From Escherichia coli (GTDB lineage: Bacteria; Pseudomonadota; Gammaproteobacteria; Enterobacterales; Enterobacteriaceae): a stretch of DNA of 64,000 nt. The stretch lies in assembly GCF_003334305.1 (NCBI RefSeq), contig NZ_QOWS01000005.1. One strand, written 5' to 3'. The position numbers and the translations under genes are program-made. The notes beneath the pieces are model-generated. The model ran no database searches. It saw only the letters and a program-made list of their open reading frames with translations, and had not been told where the DNA came from. The first letter of the stretch is position 1, and every line of letters begins with the position of its first letter. Positions 27,734 to 31,999 of this stretch are shown piece after piece.

Positions 27734-28255
27734 ATGAAACGTTTTAGTCTGGCTATTCTGGCGCTGGTTGTTGCAACCGGCGCACAAGCTGCCAGTGAAA
27801 AAGTCGAGATGAACCTCGTCACGTCGCAAGGGGTAGGGCAGTCAATTGGTAGCGTCACCATTACTGAAACCGATAAAGGTCTGGAGTTTTCGCCCGATCT
27901 GAAAGCATTACCCCCCGGTGAACATGGCTTCCATATTCATGCCAAAGGAAGCTGCCAGCCAGCCACCAAAGATGGCAAAGCCAGCGCCGCGGAATCCGCA
28001 GGCGGGCATCTTGATCCACAAAATACCGGTAAACATGAAGGGCCAGAAGGTGCCGGGCATTTAGGCGATCTGCCTGCACTGGTCGTCAATAATGACGGCA
28101 AAGCTACCGATGCCGTCATCGCGCCTCGTCTGAAATCACTGGATGAAATCAAAGACAAAGCGCTGATGGTCCACGTTGGCGGCGATAATATGTCCGATCA
28201 ACCTAAACCGCTGGGCGGTGGCGGTGAACGCTATGCCTGTGGTGTAATTAAGTAA
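27734..28255 (+). CDS. sodC: Periplasmic superoxide dismutase [Cu-Zn]
   Basis: ORF-track 27683..28255; start at ATG 27734 after GGAGG (173 aa, signal peptide MKRFSLAILALVVATGAQA); Cu/Zn ligand context GFHIHAKGSC. Confidence 0.95.
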   Translation: MKRFSLAILALVVATGAQAASEKVEMNLVTSQGVGQSIGSVTITETDKGLEFSPDLKALPPGEHGFHIHAKGSCQPATKDGKASAAESAGGHLDPQNTGKHEGPEGAGHLGDLPALVVNNDGKATDAVIAPRLKSLDEIKDKALMVHVGGDNMSDQPKPLGGGGERYACGVIK

Positions 28256-30268
28256 TTAAGAGGCCAGCGTACCTTGCGGTGGTGCTTGCTCAAGTTGCGA
28301 AAGCGAGCAGTACAGCCGCCAGACAATTGCCGCCAGCTCACGGGCGGCAGGTTGATGATGACGGGCAAGGCTGTCGCAAATCCGCTGTAATTCTTCAAGT
28401 GTGGCCGCCAGTGATTTTTGCTGAACGCCACGCTCACTCATCACTCCCCGCAACAGTGAAATACAGTTATCCCGTACTCGCGATAACGGATCGGAACGCG
28501 ATTCCCAGTCGCGCAATTGCCAGACAACATGAGAACAGTTCAGCAGCACTACACCCCAGCGTAATAACCAACGGCGAGCCAGCGCATCCTGGCTGTTACT
28601 CAACTGACTGACGTGATGATAAGTGAGCGATTCAAATTCGCTTTCACTCAGTGTTGGATGGCGGCTTAGCTGATCGACAAAATCCCGGCGCAGCGCGCGA
28701 ATATGGCGGCGGCTTTTACGAGCATCCGATCCTGGACGCAGAATGGCGAACGCTAGCCAAGCCAGCGCAACGCCAACGATTTTTGCCAGATTATCGTTAA
28801 GAAAATCAGCAAAATCATACACCGGGGGATTAGTGACAGCGATAAACGAACCCATAAAAACAATCAGTTGCCCCCACAGTGCGGCAAATTTGGGCATCTG
28901 CAATTTAAGAAGCTGCATTGTCGCCAGCAGTGGAAAGAGAAACAGTAAAAATTGCCACAGATCGCTAATCTGGACCATCAGGCCAAATTTGACCACAAAG
29001 CTGAATAGCGAAAGTAACACCAGCGTGCGCATCAGCAGTGACAACGACTTAAACGGTGCTGCGACGGCGGAGTAGAGTACGCAGCTAATTGCTGCCAGCG
29101 TTAATGCATTGGCACCGGCATCCCATTGCGATGCAATACTCCATGCGCCAATCATCATCAACGTACAAAATGTACGCAGCCCGCTCCACATAGCTTCGGC
29201 GTTGTCGGTATGACGAGCCAGAGCAGATGTCCGTGCGAGTCTGGCATGATCATCTACACCGCTTTGCAGACGATGTAATTCCTGACTACTTTGCAGATAA
29301 AGGCGGCAAAAATAACGTAGTCGCTGCCAGAAGGCGACGTGCCGGTAGTCGGCGACGTTGGTCGGGCGTAGCGGGGCGATAATACGTGCGACGGTGTAAG
29401 CATCTGTTTGCGAACTGGCGAGCGCCGTCAGCAATTGTTCGAGAATTTCTCGCGTGGCACCTGGCGGTGAGGGCCAGTTGAGCAACATACGTCGCAGGCT
29501 GGAGATGACACTGGTCATACGTAATTGCTGGTGGAGTAGCGCATTAAGCCGCGCGTTTTGCTGGCGAAAACGATAGTGGCTCCAGAAAGCCTAGATACGC
29601 AGCAAATTCATGGTCAGTATCTGCCCAATCACCCCCTCATGTGCTGCACGAATGGCATCGTTTGTTTCAGGCTGCCAGAGTAAACTGGCATGTTCCAGTA
29701 ATCGGGCGTGCATGTTTTTCAATGCGGTTAAAAGGGCTGTAGCATCGGAACTGCTAGGCAGGATCATCATCATCATGCCGCCGCACAAAATACCGACTAT
29801 CACCTCGCAAACGCGCGCCTGAGCGATATCCCACAGCTGGCTGGCCTCAGTAATATTAACCATCGGAAAGGCGATGATGGCAGCCGTGTAGCCCGCCAGT
29901 TGAAATGCATACGCGACGTTATTCGTGAAGTGCGCACAGGCCCAGGTACAAAAGCCAAGCCACGCCGACATGCTCAATAGAAAAAACCACGGCTCATTGA
30001 GCGTATGCCCGGCAAGAAGCAGTGCCGCAATGGCTCCCAGTAAACTGCCAGCGATGCGTCCGAGGCTTTTGCTGATGACACCGCCAACGGTGGGAAAGCT
30101 AACCACTGCAGCCGAGGTCATCGCCCAATAGGGTTCATCCAGATTCAAATAATAGGCAACCGTCAGCGCCAGACACATGGCAATGGTATTGCGTAACGCA
30201 TAACGCCATTGCGCCAGCGTGGCCTTGAACCAGGGCAAATTGCGCAAGGACCATGACGATGCGTTCAT
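28256..30268 (-). pseudogene. ydhK: FUSC/AaeB-like inner-membrane efflux component YdhK, interrupted by in-frame TAG at 29591-29593
   Basis: Two ORF-track ORFs (29591..30268, 225 aa; 28256..29518, 420 aa) lie in the same frame and are separated by a single TAG followed by 24 sense codons; 225+1+24+420 = 670 codons, the length I remember for intact YdhK. Confidence 0.75.
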
Positions 30269-31125
30269 TATTGACCTACGGCAATGCTACAGGTGGTGCC
30301 CGACACCAGCGTGACATCGCCTGGAACTTTATCCAGCGCAAAGCGGACGGGAACGCGTTGGGCGAGACGAACCCAGGGGACGTTAGGTTTCACATCCGGA
30401 ATAAGGCTTGAGTCACTTTCAACGCTTTGATCATAAATCGCCCGACCGATACTGGAAACGTGACCCCGTAACGTTTTGTTATCACTATAGAGGGTAATTT
30501 GTGCTGGTGCACCTTCGCGGATATGGCGCAACTTGGTTTCTTCGAAATAACCAATGACGTAAAACGAGTGGCTGTCGACAAGGGCAAACAGCGGTTTCCC
30601 GGTGTCAGCGTAATCGCCGATGCGGGTAGTGAGGTTAGTCACCCAACCACTCACCGGGGCGCGAATTTCCGTTTGCGCCAGTTGCCATTGTGTCTGTTTC
30701 AGCGTGGCCTGTGCGGCATTAACACTGGCCTGCATCGCTTTAACATTGAGGTTAGCGGTATCGAGTTCTTCGGCAGAAATAAAATTTTGTGAGAGATGAC
30801 GACGACGATTCGCTTCGTTATTGGCTTTTGCGAGGTCAGATTGCGCTTTCGCCAGCTGAGCCTGTGCGTTCAGCTCGGCGATCTGAAAGGGCGTTTTATC
30901 GATCGTGAGCAGAAGATCCCCCGCGTTAACCAGTTGGTTGTCTTTTATATTCAGCTCAACAATACGTCCCGACACCTGTGGGGTGATAGAAACCTTTTCT
31001 GCGCGTATTTTCCCGTCGCGTGTCCACGGAGATTGCATGTAATAATTCCACAGCCACCATCCGGCAAGAACCGCAACTATCGCTACAATGATTGTTGAGA
31101 AATACTTAATTGTTTTAATTGACAT
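30268..31125 (-). CDS. ydhJ: HlyD-family membrane fusion protein YdhJ (AaeA-like)
   Basis: ORF-track 30268..31167; start placed at ATG 31125 (285 aa), 2 nt after ydhI stop; stop TAA overlaps ydhK ATG by 1 nt (TAATG). Confidence 0.85.
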
Positions 31126-31127
31126 AG

Positions 31128-31364
31128 TTACCACGCAATCAGTATTGCCAGAGCAAGGCAAACGCAAATCGCAAACAGCGATAAATCCATTAACAAGGGA
31201 TGCCAGATGTCACCGGCGTAGATCCAGCCACGAAGCAGGCGGTGTACGACAAGCCAGATGACGAATCCAAACGCGAAGGCTTTGAAAAACGGAGGAAAAT
31301 AGACGGACGCACCGAACACCAGATCTTGTAAGGGCAATCCTGTTGCATTGAGCATAAACTTCAC
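31128..31364 (-). CDS. ydhI: Small membrane protein YdhI (DUF1656, AaeX-like)
   Basis: ORF-track 78 aa, two predicted TM helices; first gene of ydhIJK. Confidence 0.8.
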
Positions 31365-31558: not shown

Positions 31559-31999
31559 ATGAAATTGGAATCGCCACTAGGTTCTGATCTGGCACGGTTG
31601 GTGCGCATATGGCGTGCTCTGATAGACCATCGCCTGAAACCGCTGGAGTTAACACAAACCCATTGGGTTACGTTACACAATATCCATCAGTTACCTCCAG
31701 ACCAGTCGCAAATTCAACTGGCAAAAGCGATTGGCATCGAGCAGCCATCACTGGTCCGTACTCTGGACCAACTGGAAGAAAAAGGGTTAATTTCGCGTCA
31801 AACTTGTGCCAGCGATCGTCGGGCTAAACGTATTAAACTGACGGAAAAGGCAGAGCCACTGATCAGCGAAATGGAAGCTGTTATTAACAAAACCCGCGCG
31901 GAAATATTACATGGCATCTCCGCAGAGGAACTGGAGCAACTGATTACGCTCATCGCAAAACTTGAGCATAATATCATTGAGTTACAGGCCAAAGGGTGA
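31559..31999 (+). CDS. slyA: MarR-family transcriptional regulator SlyA
   Basis: ORF-track 146 aa ([21 protein letters not shown]...); annotated start may lie 2 codons downstream; divergent from ydhIJK. Confidence 0.95.

Follow-up and report, generated by a model that had tools for sequence, protein, structure and literature searches.

The stretch of Escherichia coli DNA analysed here (64,000 nucleotides, called the window below) raises a question about a single gene: is ydhK, which appears there as two open reading frames, really broken, and if so, by which mutational event, how often has this event occurred in nature and what does it cost the protein? The window is an exact match to the record of E. 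coli A7 (NZ_CP028767.1), a strain from orangutan faeces in the USA, with complete identity over window positions 1-25000, over the 2,013-nt gene and over the surrounding 10 kb. The ydhK gene lies on the minus strand (28256..30268) and belongs to the FUSC family of inner-membrane transporters, with 670 codons plus a stop. Translation of this span gives 671 codons and a lone internal stop at codon 226, where the minus strand reads ...CTG CGT ATC TAG GCT TTC..., the amber TAG running from 29593 to 29591. The gene is thus split into an N-terminal ORF of 225 aa, starting with an ATG (29591..30268, minus strand), and a C-terminal remnant of 420 aa, which opens with the internal ATG of codon 251 (28256..29518, minus strand); 24 sense codons stand between the stop and M251. 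The original prediction, made from the sequence alone, had described two ORFs of 225 and 420 aa in one frame, a TAG and 24 sense codons apart, and its coordinates were reproduced. Judging by the annotation, no other gene is disrupted among the window's 60-odd features. RefSeq/PGAP already labels ydhK a pseudogene and gives 'internal stop' as the note, and the pseudogene itself was therefore known; what is added here is the signature of a Dcm hotspot and the natural recurrence of the lesion.

Comparison with intact alleles identified the event. Intact ydhK measures 2013 nt and encodes 670 aa in both strain 55989 and K-12 MG1655, in agreement with the length given in the prediction. Between the A7 gene and the 55989/O104:H4 allele, a single base differs: at gene position 676 (window 29593), a C became a T and converted the glutamine codon CAG into TAG (29591..29593, minus strand). 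The proposed check, an alignment to reference ydhK alleles, was run and found CAG at codon 226 in K-12, 55989 and TUM1887, the K-12 context around this codon being GCGTATCCAGGCTTTC. With one base separating A7 from the 55989 allele, the lesion is indeed a single-nucleotide nonsense change and not a frameshift or a rearrangement.

The other genes of the operon are intact. The first gene, ydhI (31128..31364, minus strand), encodes a small DUF1656 (AaeX-like) protein, as shown by its ORF, annotation and Pfam domain, and the second, ydhJ (30268..31125, minus strand), encodes an AaeA/HlyD-like membrane-fusion partner, whose stop shares 1 nt with the ydhK start. Pfam assigned PF07869 to ydhI, PF25878, PF25963 and PF25917 to ydhJ and PF04632 to ydhK. 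Together with the annotation, these AaeX- and AaeA-like partner domains agree with the earlier description of ydhK as the third gene of an AaeXAB-like ydhI-ydhJ-ydhK cluster, divergent from slyA. Scored against the AaeB equivalog model NF007916, YdhK obtained 119.1 bits for a cutoff of 870, which makes it a paralogue of AaeB rather than AaeB itself. The divergent slyA gene (31565..31999, plus strand) is annotated as an intact regulator of the MarR family. In Salmonella, SlyA represses ydhIJK, salicylate derepresses it, and the operon confers resistance to fusaric acid (Will et al. 2019, mBio, PMC6401476); the substrate, which the original prediction had called unknown, is to that extent partly known. 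In E. coli, YdhIJK is a putative efflux pump; the fusaric acid phenotype is that of the Salmonella orthologue only.

Two side observations bear on this operon. The A7 chromosome carries a yersiniabactin high-pathogenicity island adjoining a tRNA-Asn (L056:25064-49001, corresponding to 2,840,063-2,864,000), which includes the salicylate synthase gene ybtS. In Salmonella, salicylate is reported to act as a ligand of SlyA and to derepress ydhIJK (PMC6401476), and a link between the A7 salicylate synthase and the loss of ydhK is pure speculation. At the end of the operon, sodC (27734..28255, plus strand) is a convergent neighbour of ydhK. The two stops meet at 28255/28256 with 0 intergenic bases, so that the transcription of each gene must enter the other, and the premature ydhK stop could change antisense transcription across sodC via Rho-dependent termination. 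The operon ends with ydhK and therefore holds no later gene on which this stop could have a polar effect.

What produced the C-to-T change? In the wild-type context ATC-CAG-GCT, codon 226 overlaps the motif CCAGG, and position 676 is its inner (second) C, the base targeted by Dcm. K-12 and the twin strain TUM1887 carry ATCCAGGCT at this Dcm site, which in A7 has become CTAGG (29590..29594, minus strand). A7 has a dcm gene of 1419 nt and a vsr gene of 471 nt, both intact according to the annotation. Deamination of 5-methylcytosine yields thymine. Given that the mutation affects the inner C of CCAGG, this deamination is the most likely origin of the change: in the A7 lineage, a 5-methylcytosine would have been hydrolytically deaminated to thymine and would have escaped very-short-patch repair by Vsr, and this spontaneous C-to-T change would have turned Gln226 into an amber codon. 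On the strength of the sequence context, the intact dcm gene and established knowledge, we regard this origin of the mutation (Q226* hereafter) as probable. Only 4 of the 85 transition-to-stop changes possible in ydhK hit a Dcm-methylated cytosine, namely those at W13, W109, Q226 and Q560. Amber hotspots of lacI fall on the second C of CCAGG, with an excess of about 10-fold (Coulondre et al. 1978, reviewed in PMC12606429). Very-short-patch repair acts at Dcm sites and counteracts deamination mutations without abolishing them (PMC2715241).

The same mutation was found on several backgrounds. TUM1887 is a twin of A7 that bears CAG at codon 226 and shows 0 other differences over 6.7 kb, which indicates that the A7 mutation is recent and derived. 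A second TAG haplotype (retrieved loci L003 and L010) has its own exact CAG twin, 2013C-3033, and lies 10 substitutions from A7. Three others (L006, L004 and L008) differ at 2, 3 and 6 positions, respectively, from their nearest CAG genome and at 9 or more positions from any full-length TAG haplotype. Further TAG copies were found on backgrounds that diverge from A7 by about 1% (the L049 group) and about 2% (L051). An alignment-based count gave 7 + 3 haplotype clusters for Q226* among the matches listed (17 places), and the allele is present on at least 7-9 haplotype backgrounds. Such separate backgrounds, combined with a very low allele frequency, indicate that natural E. coli have undergone this base change repeatedly.

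The low frequency itself was estimated by searching for the exact 61-mer centred on the TAG, which occurs in 1 of 5,409 complete E. coli genomes, that of A7 alone. For the other 5,408 genomes, the matches listed differ by one base (98.4% identity) and the rest fall in the 95-99% band. This exact search would miss alleles like that of L005, which carries an extra SNP at position 680. We considered whether TAG alleles had escaped it through such nearby SNPs and rejected this explanation, since L049-L055 carry the 61-mer of A7 and are absent from the complete-genome set. At the protein level, the truncated 225-aa product is better represented: with the N-terminal allele of A7 it was found in 32 index blocks, in contigs from many independent runs, and with a second allele (R15/T203) in 84 index blocks, and two NCBI protein records hold this product as well (SQM40735.1 and SQU11725.1). 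The TAG was confirmed in every retrieved locus whose contig reaches codon 226. One locus that looked like a mixed C/T sample (L012) was discarded, since its contig merely breaks off at gene position 676, where it has the C of the wild type. The Q226* allele is therefore real and recurrent. Strain-specific polymorphism, one of the alternatives raised with the original prediction, describes its rarity among complete genomes correctly but not its recurrence on many backgrounds.

Recurrence at a Dcm site does not by itself distinguish a hotspot from chance, and we compared Q226* with controls, the truncated products of 25 non-Dcm nonsense changes that require one transition, on the same N-terminal allele. 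Products of 22 of these 25 changes are on record, the contig counts for all 25 being 0, 0, 0, 2, 2, 3, 5, 5, 5, 5, 6, 6, 8, 9, 10, 11, 12, 13, 14, 16, 21, 23, 24, 84 and 438 (median 8, range 0-438). For the Dcm sites, the counts were 204 contigs for W109* (and 355 for its second allele), which is the most abundant truncated product, 21 for Q226* (and 65 for its second allele) and 2 for Q560*; Q226* ranks about fifth of 26. Raw counts of this kind were rejected as a decisive test because they are dominated by clonal expansions (438 contigs for Q287*, 84 for W146*) and by partial products at contig ends. Genuine stop codons were verified at Q199, Q216, Q236 and W229, the last as TAG and as TGA, and several of these alleles occur on multiple backgrounds. 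Contig-end partial products are also on record at the 198-, 215- and 235-aa prefixes (loci L022-L027, L035-L038 and L042-L048), whereas the 223- and 226-aa prefixes, which no single-base stop can produce, are absent from the collection. This contrast is probably explained by metagenome contigs that break at common third-position SNPs, and such partial products call for caution when nonsense alleles are deduced from exact look-ups of truncated products.

For the counting of backgrounds, an ungapped comparison of haplotypes was spoiled by indels, and the alignment-based count was used instead. Among the matches listed, the Dcm sites gave 7 + 3 haplotype clusters for Q226* and 6 for W109*, and the non-Dcm sites gave about 5 for W146* and 1-2 for Q287*, in spite of the 611 index blocks of the latter. 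The highest or nearly highest values belong to the Dcm sites, and the population data favour a hotspot excess only weakly. Considering the small margin, the clonal expansions and the sampling by listed matches, we infer the 5-methylcytosine origin rather than take it as shown.

The alternative that survives best is that an ordinary replication error, or another kind of C-to-T change, coincided with a Dcm site, and that the recurrence reflects the huge amount of sequencing together with weak selection on ydhK. The controls lend it some weight: most of the non-Dcm nonsense products are on record, the contig count of Q226* is no outlier, and non-Dcm stops have multiple backgrounds too (3 for Q199*, about 5 for W146*), W229* having even been reached through both TAG and TGA. 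Against it, the A7 mutation falls in the small Dcm-methylated class of 4 among 85 changes, the two Dcm sites with short prefixes, W109* and Q226*, show the most backgrounds among the matches listed, and the hotspot effect of about 10-fold has been established experimentally (PMC12606429). We consider an ordinary transition possible but clearly less likely than the deamination of 5-methylcytosine, which we retain as the origin of Q226*.

The survey also brought to light other natural lesions of ydhK. On the K15 allele (P0046 loci, L072-L078), W109* results from a TGG-to-TAG change at another Dcm site, CCTGG; on the R15 allele (P0049), the 108-aa W109* product is named from Shigella flexneri records, at the protein level. 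In several of the P0046 W109* lineages, sodC is disrupted or an IS110-family transposase lies beside it. As a group, W109*, W146*, Q287*, W229* and Q199* share with Q226* the gene and the kind of lesion but affect other codons, which are mostly non-Dcm. Q287* (CAA to TAA, non-Dcm; L059-L061) is listed in 611 index blocks, on contigs that reach 5.6 Mb. Of the 24 contigs read, 22 cluster together, and the allele seems to belong to a large, successful clone without YdhK. At one of its loci (L061), ydhJ carries an insertion of Mu-like transposase genes, and at another (L060) ydhF is split. In a W146* lineage (L070; GCA_000815585.1), a truncated ydhI of 57 aa, together with a second break in ydhK (216 + 258 aa), suggests a progressive decay of the whole ydhIJK operon.

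Two Q226* strains likewise carry additional changes. In L008 (1393-1704, SRR5937383), slyA has a nonsense mutation, E104*, due to a G-to-T change on the coding strand, so that both the repressor and the pump are disrupted. L005 (approximately 4147-4272, SRR7591050) contains an exact 126-bp inversion in ydhK, at about positions 1147-1272, in addition to Q226* and the SNP at position 680; the inversion is either further decay of the pseudogene or a local assembly artefact.

Could recurrence reflect positive selection for the loss of ydhK in some niches, through relief from pump toxicity or the evolution of the SlyA circuit? Over-expression of ydhK lowers viability (PMC2685091). The ydhIJK operon has been lost repeatedly across the Enterobacteriaceae (PMC6401476), and the nonsense clones can be large, as shown by the 611 index blocks of Q287* and the 309 index blocks of W109*, to which Shigella flexneri must be added. 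On the other hand, 99.98% of the complete genomes are without the TAG-bearing 61-mer of A7, ydhK insertions were among the candidate fitness defects in a screen of uropathogenic E. coli for systemic infection (PMC3855560), and the survey covered ydhK alone, so that its frequency of loss of function cannot be called unusual. We therefore judge positive selection improbable as an explanation of the recurrence.

A broader proposal would join mutation and tolerance: Dcm methylation would make W109 and Q226 predictable weak points, through which ydhK is repeatedly knocked out across phylogroups and in Shigella, the loss being tolerated or even favoured. We advance it tentatively, as a rather unlikely generalization. 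If true, it would be the equivalent, in natural populations, of the lacI hotspot experiment, and would repeat on a small scale what the ydhIJK losses show between enterobacterial species. Seen more modestly, A7 ydhK is an ordinary and recent loss of function in a dispensable, often-lost pump gene, and the Q226* allele persists because ydhK is dispensable and often inactivated. The Keio collection includes deletion mutants of both ydhK and ydhJ (PMC2685091).

The FUSC domain PF04632 matches residues 20-661 of the intact twin allele (model positions 1-658 of 660, E = 3.7e-140), and with TAG at codon 226 the A7 gene has no uninterrupted frame for the whole domain. Hydropathy analysis placed hydrophobic segments at about residues 72-171 and 388-515. 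The stop leaves the first membrane bundle, the only one in the N-terminal fragment, with some 55 residues of the soluble region behind it, and removes two-thirds of the lone FUSC domain. A PDB sequence search for a YdhK relative with a solved structure returned no match. Translation would halt after 225 residues and the inner-membrane part of the YdhIJK pump would be lost; from the sequence, we strongly infer that YdhK function is lost in A7.

For ydhK to be still functional, the amber codon would have to be read through, or the 225- and 420-aa fragments would have to form a split transporter. Some features are compatible with this: in FUSC proteins, a soluble region follows each of the two membrane bundles, the remnant ORF downstream of the stop is undamaged, and ribosomes can at times reinitiate after a stop. 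However, the break falls within the first soluble region and not between the halves, residues 226-250 would be missing, and no Shine-Dalgarno-like motif was found 4-12 nt before ATG251 or ATG261; a restart at either codon would presumably be inefficient and would give a product devoid of the first bundle. As for read-through, the anticodons of glnV/glnX (CTG), glnU/W (TTG) and serU (CGA) revealed no amber suppressor among these A7 genes, and the wild-type anticodons of glnV/glnX and serU exclude supE and supD suppression. Extra lesions in other TAG lineages, the 126-bp inversion of L005 and the slyA nonsense mutation of L008, and the pseudogene call of PGAP also argue against retained function, which we hold to be very improbable. 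The weakest reading, in which the A7 record contains a sequencing or assembly error and the true base is a C in an intact ydhK, was one of the alternatives offered originally and could appeal to the single exact 61-mer with T among the 5,409 complete genomes, but the 6.7-kb TAG haplotype identical to that of A7 recurs in Logan assemblies from independent runs (L007, with 4 samples and 4 similar places, and L011), the TAG is also found on many other backgrounds and in SQM40735.1 and SQU11725.1, and long-read assembly errors are mostly indels and seldom substitutions, so that such an error is very unlikely.

The explanation that best accounts for the whole is a C-to-T change at a Dcm site which created an amber codon and abolished ydhK function, and which is recurrent and tolerated; we hold it with high confidence. 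Taken alone, one wild E. coli isolate without a non-essential and poorly characterised efflux transporter has little significance. The A7 case nevertheless illustrates the hotspot signature of 5-methylcytosine in natural variation, and the widespread ydhK nonsense alleles fit the reported evolutionary dispensability of the operon. The A7 lineage also provides natural ydhK nulls together with an isogenic-like intact twin, TUM1887, and is suited to tests of export by YdhIJK.

Three known systems help to place this locus. AaeXAB, the p-hydroxybenzoic acid efflux system of E. coli, resembles ydhIJK in combining a DUF1656 protein, an AaeA-type protein and a FUSC protein with an adjacent regulator, but the regulator differs, SlyA being of the MarR type, whereas AaeR, the regulator of AaeXAB, is of the LysR type. 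The ydhIJK operon of Salmonella Typhimurium is orthologous to the A7 locus and equally divergent from slyA; the losses described in the Salmonella study (PMC6401476) are at the level of species, whereas that of A7 is a within-species loss due to a single codon, with the rest of the operon intact. With the lacI amber hotspots, A7 ydhK shares the CCAGG motif, its second C, the C-to-T change, the conversion of CAG into TAG and a host with dcm and vsr. The lacI hotspots differ in their rate excess over non-Dcm sites, which the ydhK population data do not establish, and in their origin: they come from selected laboratory mutants, whereas ydhK Q226* is a natural chromosomal allele of a wild isolate.
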